A stretch of 62,644 bases of DNA, counting the filler, from Globobulimina sp. (lineage: Eukaryota): assembly GCA_003354225.1 (NCBI GenBank). It is 43 parts of 43 records of this genome, joined end to end, with 100 filler letters (N's around TTAATTAATTAA, not from the genome) between each part and the next. Parts side by side here need not be neighbours in the genome. Positions count along the whole stretch, not along the records: positions 35,036 to 36,394 come from PIVH01017980.1; 42 more parts are not named here. One strand, written 5' to 3'. Position numbers and translations under genes: made by a program. This document shows, piece by piece, positions 4,282-62,644 of this stretch (the stretch's first letter is position 1; each line of letters begins with the position of its first letter). The notes below the pieces were generated by a model, which did not search any database, had not been told where the DNA came from, and saw only the letters and a list, made by a program, of their open reading frames with translations.

Positions 4282-4381
4282 NNNNNNNNNNNNNNNNNNN
4301 NNNNNNNNNNNNNNNNNNNNNNNNNTTAATTAATTAANNNNNNNNNNNNNNNNNNNNNNNNNNNNNNNNNNNNNNNNNNNN

Positions 4382-5418
4382 CGGCGCCCGCCGCTCGCTC
4401 CAGGCCTTTCATCGCCACTTTGTGTTGAACCACTGAGCCCAATACCACCCGAATAGATTGTATTATGTTCAAAAATATTAAAATCTCCGCCTGGGGCTCC
4501 ATTAGCACTATTAACCTTAATTGCCTTATTATTGACACCCAAAACATTATCATGAACATTGGCATAATTGCAATTTAAATCCATGGCGTTTCTGCCCGTA
4601 TTCTCAATAAAATTATATGCTATTTCCAAGTCAGTTGTATTATCTCCATCAGCATTTTGGTGTTTATAATAAATACCAATTGGGAAATTACTTATTTCGT
4701 TATTTAATAGTTTGATATTGTTGACACTTTTCAAATAGATTCCACATGTATTTTGATGAATTTCGGAGCCAAATCCGGGGCCATTGAGTTTGCAATTTTC
4801 TATAGTTGTATACTCGCAAAGTGATCCAATCAGTTTTATTCCTGCTGCATTATCTCCTCCACGATTTCGGGAAATGTTTAAGTTGCGGAATGTGCAATGA
4901 AAAGCCCCTGCATTTTGTCCTACCGAAAAAACGATGCCTGCATTTATAAAAGTTATTTCTTCCCATATCCAATAATCCCTGCCATCAAGCTCAATGTAGG
5001 TGTCTAGCAATTTGCAATCTACAATCACCTCTTCGTTTTGGTAATTAGTGAAAATAACTGGTTGTTCTTCCGTACCGCTTTCACACTCAACTAATTCGTC
5101 AGGATTTCCACCATATTCCCTTCTTCCATAATCCCATCTGGGGAAAAGTTTATACTTTGGAGTATAAGTGCCACCTCTCACATAAAGAACATCACCTTGT
5201 TTAACCTGATAAACACCATGCTCGATGGTTGCCCATGGATGGTCGATATCATTGTCTTCATAAGTAATACTATTGTCGCCATTAATTGCAACAAATAGTT
5301 CTTTGTGAACATTTTGATAGTTATCAGTGTCAATATCCGGGTTTGCCGAATTTTTATCGCAGGCAGAAATATAAGCCAGGAATGAAATGATTAGTGCTAA
5401 TTTTAAGATTGTTTTCAT
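4382..5418 (-). CDS. Bacterial lipoprotein with right-handed parallel beta-helix repeats (3' partial)
   Basis: Lipobox signal (LAYISA-C); PWATIEHGV...GDVLYVRGGTY motif; repeated I.NC/NN.I beta-helix rungs. Confidence 0.8.
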
Positions 5419-5918
5419 ATAAGTGCTAGTTGGTTAAAATAATCAATAGGGTCAAATTTTCTTAAATATATTGCAAGTTTTTGTCTCTTTTCAGCGTGAA
5501 TAATTTGCAACAAATGCTGCAATTGAGGCATTTGTTCTAAATGCACCTCATTATTTTGCTCTAAAGTGGGATATTTTCCTCAATTAAAGAAATAAATCTT
5601 GCTTTTGATAAATAGTTCATTTTCAGTAACAAATAAATGAATATGAGTTTGTAAAAGGTGATAATTGTCATTGATTTTAAATCATTGCAGGTGAGCACAA
5701 TATGTAGTACGTTTGTATTAGTCAGCACATTAATTCATCATNNNNNNNNNNNNNNNNNNNNNNNNNNNNNNNNNNNNNNNNNNNNTTAATTAATTAANNN
5801 NNNNNNNNNNNNNNNNNNNNNNNNNNNNNNNNNNNNNNNNNTGTAATTCCGCCATTTTAAACATAAGCGTATTGGATTCTGATAGTATATCTGATGAAGT
5901 AAATCTGTTTGCTGTAGT

Positions 5919-7112: not shown

Positions 7113-7672
7113 GTTCCGATGGTTTTTTTTTAGTTAGCTTTTATTAATATACTTACTATAAAAATATTGTATACATTGTACAAGAAACTCAACACGCAAT
7201 GNNNNNNNNNNNNNNNNNNNNNNNNNNNNNNNNNNNNNNNNNNNNTTAATTAATTAANNNNNNNNNNNNNNNNNNNNNNNNNNNNNNNNNNNNNNNNNNN
7301 NCCATAATCAAAATTTTCGAATAACAGATGCCCCGGCTACCCTGAGTGTGAAAATTTAGGTAGTCGTGCAAAGCTCTCAAGTGCGTCCAGCAACAAAAAT
7401 GGGAGAAAAAGCCAAAAACTTAGCTCAAATTTGGGCCAATAATCTTAAATTGGAATGAAGTTATCAGTAAATTTCGGCCGACTAAGAAGAATAGACGAAA
7501 AATAGTATAATTGGATTAATTATTGGTTAAAAACCAGGAAAAAAAGAATACTTTTACCTTATTTCTAACACAAGTTTGAGGTTTAAACAAAATTCTATAT
7601 GAATTACAAGAAAATCAATAATCATTGGGGTTAATCAAAAGTTTTTGAAAGATAAATAAGGATTGAAAAATA

Positions 7673-8661
7673 ATGTGCGGTATTAATGGAATGATAAAAT
7701 ATAATGGAGCTGTCGACTTTTCTGTTATTGATGATATGAATAAGACCCTTAATCACAGAGGCCCAGATGGAACCGGCAAATATATCAGTAAAAATCATAT
7801 TTGTGCATTGGGTCATGTGCGTCTTAGTATCATAGATGTTGAAGGAAGCGCCCAACCGATGTGTAATGAGAATGAAAAAATTTGGATATCATATAATGGT
7901 GAAATATATAATTATCGGGAACTTAAAAAAGAGCTTATTGAAAAAGGACATACATTTCGCACGAAAGGTGATACTGAGGTTTTAATACATTTGTACGAGG
8001 AGTATGGCACTGATATGTTAAAGTATTTATATGGCATGTTTGCTTTTGGAATATGGGATGAAGAAAAAAACATATTATTTCTAGCGCGTGATCGTATTGG
8101 TGTTAAACCTTTGTTTTTTTTTCTTAAAAAGGATGGCATTACTTTCTCGTCGGAACAAAAAGGAATTTTTAAAGATCCGGAAGTAACAAAAGAGATAGAT
8201 GAAGAAGGCATTTGGCATTATTTAACATTTAGATCTGTACCGGCCCCTAGAACACTTTATTCCGGTGTAAATAAATTGTTGCCGGGTCATTACCTTTTAT
8301 ACAAAAAAGACAGTATTAAAATTAAAACCTATTGGGATATCCCAATAACCGGAACCAAATTGACAGATAACAGCGATTCAGACCTCATAGAAATGACCGA
8401 AAACATACTTAAGAAATCGATCGAGCGTAGGCTGATAAGCGATGTTCCTTTGGGAGCGTTTTTGAGTGGTGGGGTGGATTCTAGCCTAATCGTTGCCTTA
8501 ATGAGTCAAATGTCAAATGAACCGGTTAAGACATACTCGGTTGGTTTTAAAAATTATCGGGATTCCGAAACACCATATGCGAGAATTGTAGCTGAACAGT
8601 ACAAAACCGATCACCATGAATTGAATTTAGATGAAGAAATTTACTTAGATAATTTATCAAC
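7673..8661 (+). CDS. asnB: Asparagine synthase (glutamine-hydrolysing), bacterial, 3' partial
   Basis: MCGI N-terminal nucleophile; HRGPDG; RLSIID; NGEIYNY; ARDRIGVKPL; LSGGVDSS. Confidence 0.96.
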
Positions 8662-8761
8662 NNNNNNNNNNNNNNNNNNNNNNNNNNNNNNNNNNNNNNN
8701 NNNNNTTAATTAATTAANNNNNNNNNNNNNNNNNNNNNNNNNNNNNNNNNNNNNNNNNNNN

Positions 8762-29199: not shown

Positions 29200-29680
29200 T
29201 TATTTACCAAGAATATGCGTATTGGCGACAAAGATGAAGCATCTAAATTGTATGCTAAACAAATACTCGATATTGGTAATGGTATTTATCCAACGCACAC
29301 TATCAATGATGTTGATAATTTGATTAGAATTCCTGATGATTGGCTATCCAAGTCCAATAATGTAGATGATTTCATTGACGAAATATATGGTGATATTGTA
29401 GATAAATATAAGGAGACACATGGCAAATATTTTGCTAACCGTTCGATACTAACACCGTTGAATGAGACAGTCAGAGATATTAATCAAAGAGTACTTAAAA
29501 AACTTCCAGGCGATGTGATTGAAAAGTTGAGTGACGATAAAGTGATTGATGACGCGCATGCGTGGGATTATCCTGCTGAACGCTTAAATGATTACAATAC
29601 AGGCGGCTTTCCACTACATAAACTGAGAATAAAAACGTATGCGCCTGTCATTTTATTACGAAATATTGCACCACGTAACG
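29200..29680 (+). mobile_element. Helitron-type Pif1 helicase fragment, truncated
   Basis: NMR...LDIGNG, RSILTPLNETVRDIN, YPAERLN...GFPLHKLRIK..APVILLRNI; the expected GLCNGTR is missing. Confidence 0.88.
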
Positions 29681-30012
29681 TCCAATTATTACGAAAAAAC
29701 ATTATTACGAAATATTGTCATTTTATTACGAAATATCATCAAATGGTCAATCATAAATTGAATCTGTGGTTGATTTTTCAATGATTATGTCACCGTTATT
29801 CCAACCATTGCTTGCATTAATTGTATAATTTGTCAAGTGTCAGGAAACTACTTGATAATTGGAGCATTAATTTAACATATAACAGCGCATCCAGTAATCG
29901 TTAGGGGTCCTAACCTTCACTAGCGACTCAAAAACTTGTGTGACGGTTATATGTTTTGACACGAATCTACATTTTTAAAGCACAAAAAGAATTTTATGTT
30001 AACATTGTTAAT

Positions 30013-34935: not shown

Positions 34936-35035
34936 NNNNNNNNNNNNNNNNNNNNNNNNNNNNNNNNNNNNNNNNNNNNTTAATTAATTAANNNNNNNNN
35001 NNNNNNNNNNNNNNNNNNNNNNNNNNNNNNNNNNN

Positions 35036-36394
35036 TATACTCAACCAGAAGGAGCATTTTTATCACTCCTATTAACAAGAATCGAAGCTCACATACTACA
35101 AATAATAATCCAAGCAGTCAATGCAACTTTCAAAACTCCGAAAAATAAACAAATTGCAGTACTATGCTTTGATGGCATTATGCTCCCAAAAAAACACTGG
35201 AAAAATGAAAAAGAGCGTGACCAATTTATCAAATTCCTGGAACAAATTATCACCAAAAAACTAGGTATACAAATCAACCTCATCAGCAAACCATTAAACC
35301 ATACATTATTAGACAAAATAAAAAAATACCATCAAAATCACCCAAACCTAAATATCGAAAACAACACTAACCACACCAACCATTATCACAACCAGCTTAG
35401 TGAAAAAATGGAAATTGATGAATATAACTCACTCAACTACCTTCAAACCAACAATAATAATTCCCAAACAAACAATATGAATGAACAACCACCACATCCA
35501 GACATCATAATGCAAGACCTAACACAAGAACAACTAGAAACCAACCCTCCAATAACACAGAAAGAATTTCAAGCATATATTATCAAAAAAATAAACACAC
35601 ATAATCTCCAACAACTACACCCCCAACATCCACTACAAATAATCAACTTTTGTCCAGATAAATGGCAAACTTTCCAACTAATTGATGAAACAGCCACAAA
35701 AACTTCAATAAAAATCACACACCTTCGACAATACAGAAAACTATTTTACAATTTTGGAAATCTAGCAAAACATATGGAACAACACAATACATGTAACCTT
35801 TGCCAACAATATATAGCACCAGACCAAAACACAATTGAAAAACATATCATCCTCTCATGTCCACATCTCAACAAACTCCGTAAACGATATTGGATACAAG
35901 CACACAATGAATTAGCCAAAATAAGTAATAAACCAAATCACACACACCAAACTAGATTCTCACAACACACACTAAAAACTATTCGCGCATTCAATAGCGG
36001 TAAATATAAAGAATTTTGGAAATTAGCAAGTGGGGCAAATCATATAATAACACATAAACAAACAGAAAAAATAGAACTAAAACATATTAAACTTACATGG
36101 TACGATAAAAAAAGACAACAACAAAATCAAGAACAGCACACTCATCACTTTTACACACAATTAATATCAAAACTTGCAGAATGGTACCACATTACACATC
36201 GAATAACACTAGACCATTATAAAAACAATCCACAGAAAACCACAGTAACCACAAAACTCAATAAATATAAACAAACTAAATATAACTATACATACCATGC
36301 ATGGTGCCCAACAAGAGCAGATTGGCAAAAATATAAAAAACAAAATAAAATTACACAAAATGACATAGTTATAGCAACAGATGGAAGTGGCAAA
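35036..36394 (+). mobile_element. Mobile-element polyprotein fragment: family-A/TV-Pol-like C-terminus + CCHC knuckle + RNase H start
   Basis: One open frame over the whole contig: EGAFLSLLL..IE..IL...VLCFDGIML; C-x2-C-x13-H-x4-C; IVIATDGSG. Confidence 0.65.
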
Positions 36395-46706: not shown

Positions 46707-48064
46707 TAATTGATTTATTTCCAATTCCTCCACCAATCTCTCTAACACTGTCTTGTGGTGTTTTGAATAACGATCCAAATTATAATATTTTGTTAATTTA
46801 TGCAAAGATGGATGTTTCCTAACCATTGATATCAATTCATCATTACATATATCAGTTAATATAAGCTTTGCATATTTACAGAATGAAGATTGTGGAGTAA
46901 TTCTGCCAGTCTGTGTTTGTAATCTCTGCATTAAATAATCAATTCTAATGCTATCTTCATCCAATAACTTCCGCCCTAACTCTAGATCTTCACTCAGTTG
47001 TTTTTGCATTTTGATATCTTCTAAAAACGATGGATGTTTTTTAATCATCGATATTAAGTGAGGATTGTCATGAATTGTAAACCCAGTGTGTTGCCAAAAT
47101 AGACCCAAACATGTCTGCGTTTGTAGCCGACGTAATAAATATTCAATTTTGGCTTTATCATCATCCAATAAATTTAGGTCAAGGTCATCAATCAACTTTG
47201 TCTTTGTGAGATGTATTGTGAATGAAGGATGTTTTTTTATCAATGATATTAACTGTGGCTGATCATGCACTGTAAAACCAATCTTTCTCCAAAACATGCT
47301 TGCATCGCTTATTGTGTCTCCAAATTGCAATCTAGCAAATAAATAATCAATTTTACTTTTATCATCATCCAATAAATTTAGATGGAACTCTTCAATTAAT
47401 TTCATTTTGATGGGGAAATGCAGATAGTCTTTGAGCTGTGGATGCTTTTTAATAATGGATATTAATTCTGAATTATCGGAAATTGAAAAGCCAATTTGTT
47501 TAAACAATGAATGTTTGTCCTCATCAGTTTTTAGTTCTTGATATATTTGCAACGCATCAAATAAAGTTTCAACTTTCGTCAAATTATTATAATCTGATGA
47601 TAACTCTGTAATTTCTAACTCTTCAAACAATATATGCAATAATAATGTCATTTTCTTGTTTTCTGTTTGATATTTTGATTTAGCAAATATTATTGGCAGT
47701 GTTCTGATAATTGATATCAATTTTTCATCATTATTCCATACAAAACCAACTTGTTTCCAAAATATATTTTGATGCGTAACTTTTTGATCACGTGTTTGTA
47801 ACCGAAGTAACATGGCATTGATCCTCTCCATTGTTTCCGATTCAAAATATTGTTTCAACACATTGTTAAGTTTTAATTCTTCGATCAATCTCTCAAATAA
47901 TAATTTATAATCCGTGTCTTGATCTGGTTTATATTCTGAACGCGTATGATTGAGTAATAATGGATGGTTAACGATTTTTGATATTAATTCATAATCATTG
48001 TCATTGACTGCAAACCCAATTTGTTTCCAAAATACTTGACGATCACTAATTTTCTTTTTATAAA
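46707..48064 (-). CDS. Helical tandem-repeat protein (internal fragment)
   Basis: Six copies of FW.Q.GF...D...LIS.I.KHP in a frame open across the contig. Confidence 0.75.
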
Positions 48065-48164
48065 NNNNNNNNNNNNNNNNNNNNNNNNNNNNNNNNNNNN
48101 NNNNNNNNTTAATTAATTAANNNNNNNNNNNNNNNNNNNNNNNNNNNNNNNNNNNNNNNNNNNN

Positions 48165-52575: not shown

Positions 52576-53832
52576 TCAATAATCGTTGTATTTCCAATTC
52601 TTATCCCTCGACCATTCCTCGACGAAGTTATACAAATCTGGACATTTTGGAGCAAAATCTTTGAGGGTAGGGCTTCTTTGAGCAATACTGGAACTAATCG
52701 AAACATACATGTGAAATTCTTTTTTATAATTAGGGTTTTCTATACGACGTCGATTTTTGACGAATTTCCAAATATTACCGTTTCCTCGCAGACTATAGCT
52801 GACCGTCGGTTGAATTCCTTCACTTTCAGCTTCAGAACGTATTTCACTATTCCACTCATAAACCTTTTTAGCTCTTTCTTTAATAATATCTCTTTTGTTC
52901 TTCGACAAATCGGGTCTGATACCGAACCTGATGTACAAACGTTCTTGATGGCTAACACTTTGTTTGAAGAGGACATTGGCCGTTTCGGGAATGAAGCAAT
53001 CCTTGGCATGGTTTCGATGGTATTCCATTATAAGTCTGACAGACCTTACATTGTTTAAAGTTACTTTGATTAGACGCTTCAAATCATCCCTTGGTCGACC
53101 AAGTCGTACAACATCACGAATATCGGTTTCGTCAATTGTAACACCACCCTCAGGTACAAGACCGTCAATGAGATTCGATATCAAGTTATAATCTTTGGCA
53201 ACAGAGCCCGTTTCAGGTACACGAGAGAAAATAAGCACCTTGTTCGCGTCAATATCATTTACGGCGGATTTGACTGTTTCTTTCATTGTCCTAGTCATAG
53301 TTTGTGACATTTCTATGTTTTTCTTTGCAATATCAGCATATGATTCTGATTTGGTATCAAGCGACGATTTTATTTCTTTAATTTGAGAACCAATGTCAGT
53401 TATGACCGATGTTAAAGAGGCAATTTTGGACATAAACTCGTCTTTTGATACGTTGGTAGATGGGTCAGCAGAGGCAGGCGAAACCTGGACATCCATTGGT
53501 GACAATACACGACGATTAGTCAAATCGTTAGTACAGGTGGGACAGAGATATTGCCAGGCATAAGCCGGACTTGTTGAGACCACACATTTATAAAAATTCT
53601 TCTTCTTTTGAGCCATTTTTCCAGCGAACATATTATGACCAGGAAACATATCAAATGCACAGTCAACGCAAACCCAATATGAACAGCCGAGACATCCTAT
53701 CCATTGTTGGTTGAAGGATTTACCCAGTTTATCACAAATCGAACATTTTTCATCGTCCGTCGGAGAAATAGAAAGGGAGGCGACGGGGGGAAAAGGTGGA
53801 ATTTCTTTGTCTATAGAGGGACTTTTTGACAT
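52576..53832 (-). mobile_element. LINE (CR1/L2-like) ORF1 protein with PHD-like finger
   Basis: CSIC..WIGCLGC.YWVCVDC..YLCPTC, coiled coil, SYAD, VLIFSRVPE...RLGR...RLIKV (RRM-like), IRPDLS. Confidence 0.8.
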
Positions 53833-54035
53833 TTTCACAATAATATTGGATGATTTTAGGTCGTGTGAATCGTTTTTAAATTATAACAAGGTATTTNNNN
53901 NNNNNNNNNNNNNNNNNNNNNNNNNNNNNNNNNNNNNNNNTTAATTAATTAANNNNNNNNNNNNNNNNNNNNNNNNNNNNNNNNNNNNNNNNNNNNACTT
54001 AAACTTTAAAGTTTTGAAAAGCTTTAACTAGCATA

Positions 54036-61186: not shown

Positions 61187-61286
61187 NNNNNNNNNNNNNN
61201 NNNNNNNNNNNNNNNNNNNNNNNNNNNNNNTTAATTAATTAANNNNNNNNNNNNNNNNNNNNNNNNNNNNNNNNNNNNNNNNNNNN

Positions 61287-62628
61287 AAATGTCTTGTGCA
61301 TTTGTGTTTTTAGATTGCATAGTTGCTTCACCCTGCATGACCCATGACATATTGTGCATATTCACTTCATTGTTTTCAGATTGTTCAGATTCAGTTTTCT
61401 CAGAAATATCAGACAAAAGATTCATATTAAGAAATGATTTATCAATAGAATGCATTAAGGATTTATCATAAATAACGTTGGATACAGTAGGTACATTCAA
61501 TACATTATCACCAACATTAACATCATCAATAACTAAAGGCATTGTTTCAATTTGCATTGGAAAATCTGTACCGGGTGCGGGCGTTGAATCATTTCCGCCA
61601 TCTGGCGCTGTTTCAACGGCGCCGGGCGCGGTTTCAATATTTTCGGTGTCGAGCGTCGATTCTACTGGAGCGTCATGCGTCGAATTCCATAGTGCGTCAT
61701 CATGCGTCAAGTCCATTAATGCGTCGTCATGCGTCGATTGCATGTCATGCGCCGAATCTGATTGACTGACTACAGTACCCGTGTGACTACTGGGCATCGA
61801 TTCTGTTGAGCTATTTTCAGTCCCAGTGTGACTGCTACGACTACTTTCACCCTCTGCGCCGTTTCCCTGCTGCCGATCACCACTTTCCTTCAACAAATTC
61901 TTTTTATTTTTCCTTTTTAACTTTTTGGCTTGATTTTTACTAAGTATTTTAGGTTCAAATATTTTGGGCAGCACTCCTCCCCCATTTTCTGTTTCTGTTT
62001 CAGGTTCTGCGCCAATTGATTCATCTTTTCGATCCCCATCACCATTTTTTTTCCAATCACCATCCCCAATTTCACTAAGTGTTTGTTCACCGAAAATTTT
62101 GGGCAGCACCCCTCCTCTAAAAATCTGTTTCTGTTCAGAAGCTGGACTTCCAAGTTGATCACCCTCACCATCTCCACTATTTATAGAGGGGTTTCCCAAA
62201 GGTAAAACCAATGGTACTCCGCTGGCCTCTGTTTCAATTTGATCTCCATCACCAATCACCATATTTATAGAGGGGTTTCCCAAAGGTAAAACCAATGGTA
62301 CTCCGCTGGCCTCTGTGTTGACTTGATCACCATTACCAATCACCATATTTATAGAGGGGTTTCCCAAAAATGGTACTCCACTGGCCTCTGTTTCAAGCTG
62401 ATCACCATCACCAATCACCATATTTATAGAGGGGTTTCCCAAAGGTAAAACCAATGGTACTCCGCTGGCCTCTGTTTCTGTTGTTTCACCATTTCCATCT
62501 CCACTATTTATAGAGGGGTTTCCCAAAGGTATAACCAATGGTACTCCACTGGCCTCTGTGTTGATTTGATCACCAATACCATTTTCTTCCATTTTCTTCT
62601 CCACTGATGAATTTTCTTTTTCTGCCAT
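61287..62628 (-). CDS. Acidic low-complexity protein with five ~28-aa tandem repeats (3' partial)
   Basis: TEASGVPLVLPLGNPSIN repeats (four 84-nt units, one 75-nt unit) at ~62150-62560, plus THDDA repeats. Confidence 0.7.
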
Positions 62629-62644
62629 TTTTCTGCAATATTTC

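Follow-up and report, generated by a model that had tools for sequence, protein, structure and literature searches.

In I, Tad and allied APE-type clades of non-LTR (LINE) retrotransposons, the C-terminus carries a CCHC knuckle followed by RNase H; among non-LTR proteins, R2 and L1 ORF2p have solved structures. A reverse transcriptase (RT) and a DNA-directed priming or polymerising domain are united in one protein in the prokaryotic RTs fused to archaeo-eukaryotic primase (AEP) domains, but these fusions differ from the LINE form considered here in having the AEP fold, not that of family A, in their prokaryotic hosts and in not being target-primed.

The features of TV-Pols and their fusion to D5 were described by Iyer, Abhiman and Aravind in 2008 (excerpts of PMC2579912). 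Like the TV-Pol-D5-like SF3 helicase proteins (Sputnik V13, Polinton-like viruses) as portrayed in excerpts of PMC2579912 and bioRxiv 10.64898/2026.06.19.733378, the domain analysed here has a predicted exonuclease-less core of thumb, palm and fingers with two palm Asp residues and a fingers Lys, and its nearest non-LINE relatives carry the same helicase fusion, Sputnik V13 itself being compared by description. The LINE form differs in that it has no helicase, the domain being placed between the RT and the CCHC/RNase H region of a retrotransposon polyprotein. In the excerpted text of PMC7581432, CCPol of SCCmec elements is an active exonuclease-less family-A DNA polymerase that extends primers, and primes de novo with MP; it resembles the LINE domain in belonging to a mobile element and in being a family-A polymerase that lacks an exonuclease, but is bacterial and stand-alone and has a partner, whereas the LINE form has no MP-like part. 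CCPol was absent from the PDB sequence and fold match lists for the domain. With APE-type non-LTR elements the locus shares, as seen in its best relative, an endonuclease-like N-terminus, an R2-related RT, a CCHC knuckle and RNase H; the difference is about 465 extra residues that form a second palm domain, of predicted DNA-polymerase type. In the literature searched (subscription journals and supplementary files lying outside it), no paper joined retrotransposons with TV-Pol, and none joined 'non-LTR' with 'A-family polymerase'; within that literature, the combination of a LINE with a virophage-type family-A polymerase is undescribed for retrotransposons.

Reading frame and LINE framework

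The window, that is, the whole 62,644-nucleotide stretch of DNA that was analysed, filler included, consists of about 43 short contigs joined together; N...TTAATTAATTAA...N linkers occur 42 times in it against 0.1 expected. When the window was searched by tblastn with three relatives of the locus (P0002, P0041 and P0030), no contig other than that at 35036-36394 was matched. The whole of this contig (1359 bp) is a single frame of 453 codons, open at both ends, and no ORF above 75 aa is present in its remaining frames. The initial annotation had the frame open for 48 codons before its ATG and had called the strand A/C-rich; both descriptions held (frame 1, with the ATG at 35180; GC skew -0.48 and AT skew +0.38 over 35001-36000), and the peptide strings that it quoted are all found in the translated contig. 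The DNA carrying the frame has a G+C content of 32% and is even in composition along the whole contig, with an A/C-rich strand bias unlike that of most contigs in the window.

The encoded protein (P0001) is colinear with the 1899-aa P0002, residues 5-451 aligning to 1266-1723 at 44% identity (E 2e-117). P0002 has RVT_1 at 485-700 (E 2.1e-29), YCDD at 659, a CCHC knuckle at 1531 and RNase_H at 1714-1857 (Pfam). The best PDB sequence matches of its RT are R2 retrotransposon RT chains (E 2.8e-22), and its first 200 residues are like Exo_endo_phos clusters in the Atlas, which is a lead only, with no Pfam endonuclease match at E ≤0.1. The layout of this best relative comprises an endonuclease-like N-terminus, RT plus C-terminal extension, acidic linker, TV-Pol-type domain, N/H-rich linker, CCHC knuckle and RNase H. 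Only one relative in the LINE family is named, and its source is a foraminifer. The contig is best read as a piece of the large ORF that an APE-type non-LTR (LINE) retrotransposon carries in an AT-rich protist; of the polymerase-like domain it holds only the last third, and of RNase H only the first ~12 residues. As noted at the outset, there is no RT on it, the RT of the colinear P0002 lying ~570 residues upstream.

The same colinearity bears on a reading that takes the N-terminal segment for the last part of the RT of the element itself, with motifs B to E (Q-G..LS.LL, F.D., LG.xIN). There is a superficial by-eye likeness to these LINE RT motifs, but the segment aligns to P0002 1266-1350, far from RVT_1 at 485-700 and YCDD at 659, so the first ~91 residues are not RT; moreover, its homologues include helicase-fused proteins that have no RT, and the whole domain folds in the model as family A, with Z 4.9 for the best RT chain listed. 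Given the colinearity, the RVT_1 position and the family-A fold, the RT reading was rejected, its probability being negligible.

The first ~91 residues belong instead to the end of the insert of about 465 residues. In a 13-row alignment, this insert lies in P0002 between KWIPNW (~986) and KLTDDMYKAY (~1452) and is absent from eight LINEs of the same family (P0030, P0007, P0018, P0039, P0006, P0009, P0046 and P0017). Other proteins do carry the domain: P0075 (930 aa) has a complete polymerase domain, linker, CCHC knuckle and full RNase H, P0076 (591 aa) has the C-terminal region of a LINE RT and then the polymerase domain, and P0029 is an additional fragment. The initial annotation had allowed that the junction might occur only once or be an amplification chimera. 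A contig of only 1359 bp in a very fragmented assembly, with no contig of sequencing run X1 spanning the whole stretch, would leave room for an assembly or amplification chimera, or for a DNA element that had landed in a dead LINE copy. However, the LINE/polymerase junction recurs in the same order in four diverged sequences (the window protein, P0002, P0075 and P0076) that are 34-60% identical to one another and each in one unbroken frame, which argues that it is not a chimera. The uniform composition of the contig, the separate clade formed by LINE-borne domains, and the lack of a helicase or other DNA-element gene beside the domain in P0002, P0075 and P0076 likewise make a chimera or chance insertion highly improbable.

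Several further parts follow the domain in the contig. The N/H/Q-rich linker recognised at first reading comprises residues 106-166 (35351..35533, + strand) and is disordered in the model (pLDDT <50). Residues 170-252 (35544..35791, +) are a conserved LINE region preceding the knuckle (LHPxHPL...INF, YRKLFYNFG) that is common to the insert-free relatives P0030, P0007, P0018, P0039 and others. The CCHC zinc knuckle begins at 35792, as claimed, and reads directly as C253-x2-C256-x13-H270-x4-C275 (35792..35860, +); in the 13-row LINE alignment, each of the 12 rows that cover the knuckle block has its C, C, H and C residues. Between knuckle and RNase H is a folded, mostly helical spacer (residues 276-441; 35861..36358, +; pLDDT mostly >90), whose fold matches, at Z 6.1 to the C-terminal part of R2Tg and at Z 5.7 to that of human L1 ORF2p, are weak and both lie below the tool's noise level. 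The contig ends in DIVIATDGSGK, as originally stated, and its last stretch (NDIVIATDGSGK; 36359..36394, +) is the start of RNase H, its first ~12 residues, cut by the contig end. The identity of the sequence after TDGS had been one of the points in doubt: this end aligns to P0002 1714-1723, at the start of the Pfam RNase_H domains of P0002 (1714-1857) and P0075 (744-884), and both relatives have RNase H there.

Identity between LINE copies is 38-44% in the domain, 27-29% in the linker and 28-50% in the CCHC block. Sequencing run X1 contains near-identical contigs; of the 40 listed differences that separate the contig from these, 23 are synonymous and 17 non-synonymous, with no stop codon among them; the synonymous share expected under random change is ~19%. 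Among the sequencing runs searched, the contig was found in one, X1, with 0.54 of its words; runs X2 and X3 showed nothing of it, and no RNA run was listed with it, which is uninformative on expression. The 41 pieces of run X1 on the stretch are all short, none spanning the whole of it, and 24 are only 95-99% alike; these near-identical variant contigs suggest several copies. An open frame and an excess of synonymous differences would also be compatible with a host gene family, and hence with a domesticated gene derived from such an element in place of a mobile copy. We consider domestication very unlikely: 24 of 41 pieces at 95-99% are what a repeat family would be expected to give, the assembly breaks inside the ORF at both ends, the strand bias sets the contig apart from most others in the window, and the relatives retain endonuclease-like, RT and RNase H parts.

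Fold and motifs of the polymerase-like domain

An AlphaFold model of P0002 1001-1420 (pLDDT 78, pTM 0.76) was compared with 48,161 chains by VIA-align. Klenow was the top match (Z 15.5, rmsd 4.2, 289 residues; segment model 34-349 aligned to Klenow 521-926), Pol theta came next (Z 14.6), and ranks 1-17 were family-A DNA polymerases or T7-type RNA polymerases only; other folds had Z ≤7, with the palm alone covered. Foldseek with the insert model gave family-A polymerase in all rows listed, at E ≤0.001 in three. By its model, the P0002 insert is thus a predicted minimal family-A (TV-Pol-type) core consisting of thumb, RRM-like palm and fingers, the fingers of this fold being an insertion that follows the first palm strand, with no exonuclease.

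In sequence searches, Pfam gave nothing meaningful for the P0002 insert and only a sub-threshold RovC_DNA-bd match for the window protein; the PDB sequence search returned no chain for the window protein and nothing meaningful for the insert; NCBIfam and PHROGs placed no family on the domain; and the DNA_pol_A HMM (PF00476) had no match in either of two virophage records. Since no sequence profile ties the domain to family A, the assignment rests on predicted structure and motif order. The Atlas clusters nearest to the insert are unnamed viral ones, a DNA_pol_A-bearing cluster scoring 0.83 only, to be taken as a lead, not as evidence. Two other matches were set aside: a helicase-type 'Primase' chain found in the PDB with the profile of mixed alignment A1 was matched only through helicase columns, and a FosX match for P0076 (E 4e-4, 20 bits versus a cut-off of 170) was taken as chance.

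In the contig, HMM, alignment and model assign residues 1-91 (35036..35308, +) to the C-terminal third of the TV-Pol-type domain. The segment aligns to P0002 1266-1350, and a domain HMM made without the window sequence matches it at positions 151-230 of 231 (E 1.4e-16; 94 sequences). Its elements are the long helix before motif C (EGAFLSLLLTRIEAHILQ), the motif C β-hairpin VLCFDGIM and, at the end, a helix and the strand IQINLISKP; between the window and P0002 models, H4-32 equates with H265-293, the hairpin E42-44/E47-49 with E303-305 and E308-312, and H58-76 with H319-337. When residues 1-86 were modelled alone, the fold search returned only matches of a general RRM/ferredoxin-like kind (Z ≤6.1, under the noise level of the tool). 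The TV-Pol-like palm that the initial annotation saw in this segment is nevertheless upheld by the HMM match, the Klenow-like fold of the P0002 domain and the helicase-fused relatives; a segment devoid of PolA/TV-Pol similarity, the outcome that would have spoken against that annotation, is not what was found. We are highly confident of the LINE architecture and the family-A identity of the domain taken together.

The motif C Asp is Asp46 of the window protein (codon GAT at the hairpin turn; 35171..35173, +). Of the Asp columns in the domain alignment, its column alone is invariant; the residue is equivalent to D1307 of P0002 (D307 of the segment), present in 30 of 30 rows; D1150, D1152, K1202, N1210, G1267, E1278, F1306 and G1308 each occur in at least 90% of these rows, and the GR before motif A is also conserved (ERR in LINE copies), its Arg being a candidate for the template-contacting β-hairpin Arg that precedes the palm in TV-Pols. 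The two palm Asp positions predicted to bind metal (motifs A and C) are kept in all LINE copies that cover them.

These motifs bear on whether the captured domain might persist as a non-catalytic module, such as a DNA/RNA-binding clamp or an RT-RNase H scaffold, that does not polymerise. Dead polymerase domains have usually lost their metal ligands, yet here every covering LINE copy has the palm Asp pair, the Lys of the fingers, an NGG motif and an FDG-type motif, although identity is only 38-44%. Some positions do vary in a way that favours a non-catalytic module. The Arg of the fingers motif R1198-x3-K1202 of P0002, which occurs also in mollusc forms, is missing from P0075 and P0076, and from P0041; P0002 has Phe in place of the near-invariant His1157; and the residues beside the motif C Asp change, to CSDG in P0076 and CYDE in P0029. 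The excerpts of PMC7581432 likewise give no known activity for the helicase-fused/LINE-borne subgroup. On balance, a module that has given up polymerisation seems unlikely.

Relatives outside LINEs

A representative search with the window protein gave 46 matches, only two of which cover the N-terminal segment; one of these, P0041, runs on into a D5_N/SF3 helicase. Further relatives numbered 26 in one set and 19 in another, ten of each having helicase families in precomputed Pfam annotation. The parts attached to the domain in non-LINE relatives are D5_N, DUF5906 or a P4-type primase C-terminal helicase, and in the closest of them the domain is N-terminal to a D5/SF3 helicase. Among viral contigs, 26 loci encode the domain. 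One of them (L004) lies in a complete Sputnik-like virophage genome of 21.4 kb, in which the major and minor capsid proteins are of Sputnik type and the domain is joined to D5_N in a protein of 816 aa. Searches elsewhere were negative: tblastn with the virophage domain found no match in the phage collection, and neither the 55 pattern matches of P0075 in metagenome contigs nor the four of P0077 in viral contigs included a relative.

In a quick tree of 41 rows, the three LINE domains included form one clade (SH-aLRT 99) that is sister to the helicase-fused P0077 (SH-aLRT 89), which suggests, as far as sequence comparison goes, a single origin of the LINE-borne domain. Most likely, a single capture took the domain from a virophage or a Polinton-like virus, in which it was part of a TV-Pol-SF3 helicase gene, and it then diversified with the element.

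Possible role in second-strand synthesis

Taken as a whole, the locus is probably best explained as a LINE with a captured TV-Pol-type domain, which may serve second-strand synthesis. In the mechanism that we propose, the endonuclease and RT would make first-strand cDNA through target-primed reverse transcription, RNase H would remove the RNA from this strand, and the built-in DNA-dependent polymerase would then make the second DNA strand on the cDNA as template, possibly acting also as primase, as has been proposed for TV-Pols. That the domain is used catalytically in this last step is a more tentative proposition, to which we give a little less than an even chance. LINE RTs can copy DNA themselves, which leaves no evident need for an additional polymerase. 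As to priming, CCPol, in the excerpts of PMC7581432 the sole biochemically characterised TV-Pol, requires a partner protein, and no MP-like priming partner was seen in the LINE sequences. The fullest version of the proposal, in which a LINE lineage has its own DNA-dependent polymerase or even primase-polymerase from a virophage or Polinton-like virus and uses it to prime and make the second strand after RNase H action, is conceivable but, in our view, somewhat doubtful.

How the second strand arises has long been an unsettled question of target-primed reverse transcription in LINEs, one for which a dedicated family-A polymerase beside RNase H would be a natural experiment. The LINE-borne and helicase-fused domains make up a compact, exonuclease-free polymerase subgroup known from sequence and models. 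With the LINE-borne form, a polymerase would join the few enzymatic domains known to have been captured by LINEs, and this would be a case of gene flow in which a replication module of a virophage or Polinton-like virus passed to a retroelement. If the proposed role is true, this would be the first retrotransposon independent of both its own RT and host polymerases for its second strand.

A retrotransposon fragment with an additional segment

At 62.6 kb, the window comprises ~43 unrelated contigs of ~1.36 kb each, ordered by size, and is not a single locus; they are joined by N runs around an all-frame stop linker, TTAATTAATTAA, of which there are 42 copies (0.1 expected). Because positions 35036-36394 (+) are exactly one joined contig, the ORFs that flank it are uninformative, as is gene neighbourhood throughout the window (1-62644). 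The reading frame for its protein, P0001, is open through all 453 codons and past both contig ends, and the DNA (~32% G+C) contains no ORF above 75 aa in any other frame. The open frame, peptides and N/H/Q-rich linker reported in the initial annotation are all present in P0001, as are the CCHC knuckle (C253-x2-C-x13-H-x4-C275, starting at 35792) and the terminal DIVIATDGSGK; the coding strand is A/C-rich as described, with a GC skew of -0.48 and an AT skew of +0.38.

Among the window ORFs near this contig are an aldehyde-dehydrogenase-family protein, an asparagine synthase (7667-8665, +; GATase_7 E 3.2e-46, Asn_synthase E 3.2e-29) and a fragment of a Pif1-type helicase (29200-29784, +; Pif1_2B_dom E 7.9e-5, slightly short of the curated cut-off), which may derive from a Pif1 gene, either Helitron-like or host. 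A 434-aa ORF (52579-53880, -) with Cys/His-rich, PHD-like stretches matches nothing in Pfam at E ≤1e-3 and by eye is like retrotransposon ORF1-type proteins, and a secreted-looking protein (4381-5433, -) also has no Pfam match. Two ORFs are made of internal repeats (46707-48068, - and 61231-62643, -), the first without a Pfam match; one of the pair has ~60-aa units with FWKQIGF…LISxIKKHP and the other has units with ETEASGVPLVLPLGNPSINMVIGDGDQ.

The search with P0001 turned up one long relative, P0002, a 1899-aa protein from a 6455-bp contig (E 1.5e-108). P0001 5-451 is colinear with P0002 1266-1723 at 44% identity, and Pfam places RVT_1 at residues 485-700 of P0002, with YCDD at 659, and RNase_H at 1714-1857. 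Given this colinearity and these positions, the first ~90 residues of P0001 correspond to a region ~570 residues downstream of the reverse transcriptase (RT). A by-eye guess that the N-terminal segment represents LINE RT motifs B to E is refuted by the same alignment and RVT_1 position.

With P0001 as query, 1.84 billion representative proteins yielded 46 matches at E 1e-3 or better, among them P0005 from the foraminifer Nonionella stella. All except two were confined to residues 114-453 (pre-knuckle block, CCHC, spacer), and several of these 44 are RT-CCHC-RNase H proteins such as P0030 (1203 aa; RVT_1 and RNase_H). In a 13-row alignment, the RT C-terminal extension (…IPSPxxRW…, …KWxP) of eight LINEs (P0030, P0007, P0018, P0039, P0006, P0009, P0046, P0017) almost directly adjoins the pre-knuckle block (…LHKxHPF…), whereas P0002 has ~465 extra residues, at roughly 986-1452. 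As judged from these sequences, the extra segment is specific to a LINE sub-lineage.

The initial annotation had asked whether the domain order recurs. It does: the junction between LINE and inserted domain occurs in four diverged sequences, namely P0002 (full layout), P0076 (591 aa; RT C-terminal extension, then domain), P0075 (930 aa; domain, linker, CCHC, complete RNase H) and the window contig (domain end, linker, CCHC, RNase H start). The source of P0076 marks it as partial and assigns it to a bacterial metagenome-assembled genome (Aestuariibacter sp.); it is 60% identical to P0075, and its contig is probably eukaryotic and misbinned. Identity between LINE copies is 38-44% in the domain, 27-29% in the linker, 28-50% in the CCHC block and 58% in RNase H.

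Only one public sequencing run, X1, contains the stretch (0.54 of the words), and X1 may be the assembly's own source. Its contigs cover the stretch in 41 short pieces, 14 of them at least 99% alike and 24 at 95-99%. The 40 differences listed of 48 comprise 23 synonymous and 17 non-synonymous changes and no stop, versus a synonymous expectation of ~19% if every single-base change were equally likely. This suggests several recent, selected copies, with the proviso that contig depth in X1 is not copy number.

Conserved motifs and predicted fold of the inserted domain

In a 30-row alignment the domain is compact (~250 residues) and has seven conserved blocks in the order GR…SLQ…IR, YYDIDMKNAHP, YIxNR, KxxxLxxxNGG, NxEGxxxNxLxCxxENxxL, LVFDGxMIYK and a final strand ending in K. 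In P0002 numbering, D1307 never varies, and D1150, D1152, K1202, N1210, G1267, E1278, F1306 and G1308 occur in 90% or more of the rows. With P0001 and P0029 (a 111-aa fragment) left out, the domain-covering rows yielded an HMM that matched P0001 1-91 at positions 151-230 of 231 (E 1.4e-16, 94 sequences). The polymerase domain had no hits in Pfam, PHROGs or NCBIfam, and two virophage records searched with the DNA_pol_A HMM were also negative. The relationship of the domain to family A thus escapes sequence profiles, which fits the wording 'weakly detectable DNA polymerase A' in the available text of a 2026 preprint (bioRxiv 10.64898/2026.06.19.733378).

An AlphaFold2 model of P0002 1001-1420, made from the 30-row alignment with no templates, had pLDDT 78 and pTM 0.76, with residues 131-360 mostly >90. 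Among 48,161 PDB representatives, VIA-align ranked the Klenow fragment first (Z 15.5, rmsd 4.2 Å, 289 residues aligned); model residues 34-349 aligned to the entire polymerase domain of Klenow (521-926). Pol theta scored Z 14.6, and ranks 1-17 were without exception family-A DNA polymerases or RNA polymerases of the T7, mitochondrial or N4 type. At Z ≤7, and with the palm alone covered, came family-B polymerases, RTs and generic ferredoxin-like folds. All Foldseek rows listed were family-A polymerases, only three of them at E ≤0.001. In the model, D1150 and D1152 are at the end of strand 148-153, R1198xxxK1202 is in helix 198-209 and D1307 is at the turn of hairpin 303-312; the conserved residues are, in this prediction, at the places expected for family-A motifs A, B and C.

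The model of P0001 itself (56 rows, pLDDT 82) has a helix (4-32), a hairpin (42-44 and 47-49) with D46 at the turn, and a second helix (58-76), all three also present in the P0002 model. These precede a disordered stretch (106-166) and a confident, mostly helical domain (170-453). Its best fold match, Z 6.1, falls short of the noise level given for the tool; the top rows, at such Z, included R2Tg (model 173-401) and human L1 ORF2p (193-409), each matched in its C-terminal part, and residues 1-86 had sub-noise matches to generic RRM/ferredoxin-like palms. Because this search was indecisive, the fragment was identified via homology to the complete copies.

Relatives of the domain and its probable TV-Pol membership

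Of the 46 matches to P0001, only P0029 and P0041 cover its residues 3-110. P0041 (703 aa) continues into D5_N, and its residues 236-684 match phage 'DNA primase' helicase families (E down to 6.7e-47). Queries with P0041 1-215 and P0075 40-300 retrieved 26 and 19 domain-bearing proteins, respectively. Besides the LINE copies, the domain is found N-terminal to SF3 helicase parts (DUF5906, D5_N, VapE-like, P4-type primase C-terminal); near the N-terminus of P0087 (1046 aa, domain at 55-314) and P0091 (1088 aa, domain at 132-374), upstream of a long non-SF3 part that in P0087 matches the precomputed Herpes_ori_bp family and NCBIfam CyRepA1 (E 6.5e-29); and directly upstream of a protein-primed family-B polymerase part in mollusc-type proteins.

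The mollusc-type proteins (P0054-P0071) are encoded on contigs up to megabases long, one named Mytilus coruscus. In them the domain adjoins, on the upstream side, a part matching DNA_pol_B_2 from profile position 80 onward, and longer forms have an Endonuclease VII-like HNH motif and an exonuclease-like N-terminus upstream of the domain. Unless gene-model error is to blame, these proteins would represent another unusual composite, with a family-A core inside a protein-primed family-B polymerase.

Viral contigs encode the domain at 26 loci. The one examined, L004, lies in a 21,415-bp record that has terminal repeats and a completeness rating of 100%. The record encodes a Sputnik-type major capsid protein (E 5.6e-52), V18/19 minor capsid proteins, collagen-repeat proteins and a protein of 816 aa with D5_N after the domain. 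This is the V13 layout, as described, in a Sputnik-like virophage.

As far as its accessible text goes, PMC2579912 (Iyer et al.) defines TV-Pol as a minimal family-A core (thumb, hairpin Arg, two-Asp palm, RxxxK fingers) without a nuclease domain, frequently joined to a D5-like helicase as in Sputnik V13. The initial annotation's TV-Pol reading agrees with the modelled fold, the two Asp residues and the helicase-fusion layout, the comparison with V13 and CCPol being by description only. The RxxxK Arg is variable in the present family.

A quick, midpoint-rooted maximum-likelihood tree was made from 41 of 49 HMM-matching proteins, leaving out partial domains (P0001, P0029, P0041, P0055, P0071, P0090, P0092, P0093). 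The three LINE domains formed one clade (SH-aLRT 99), with helicase-fused P0077 as sister (SH-aLRT 89). This pattern fits a single capture from a helicase-fused viral gene, without proving the direction of transfer.

Possible role in the LINE

These results uphold the composite retroelement proposed initially. In the searched literature, which stops short of subscription journals, Repbase-type databases and supplementary files, we found no paper joining retrotransposon and TV-Pol, non-LTR and A-family polymerase, or non-LTR retrotransposon and Reticulomyxa; among the matches listed for foraminifera, retrotransposon and reverse transcriptase together, none concerned such a composite by title or abstract, and one was about adenine methyltransferases. 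The components are known and their combination appears new, with prior description possible outside that literature.

By its modelled fold, the LINE polyprotein holds a second right-hand polymerase domain, of DNA-templated family-A type, besides its RT. The domain lies a few hundred residues before RNase H and its predicted metal ligands are conserved; the main rival reading, that it is retained as a non-catalytic module, seems to us improbable. According to the text available from PMC7581432, CCPol, then the sole biochemically characterised TV-Pol, is a DNA polymerase that depends on primer and template and, once bound to its partner protein, can prime de novo. We tentatively favor, at somewhat less than even odds, a role in second-strand synthesis: target-primed reverse transcription would come first, RNase H would clear the RNA, and the family-A domain could then copy the cDNA into a second strand, which it might even prime itself.
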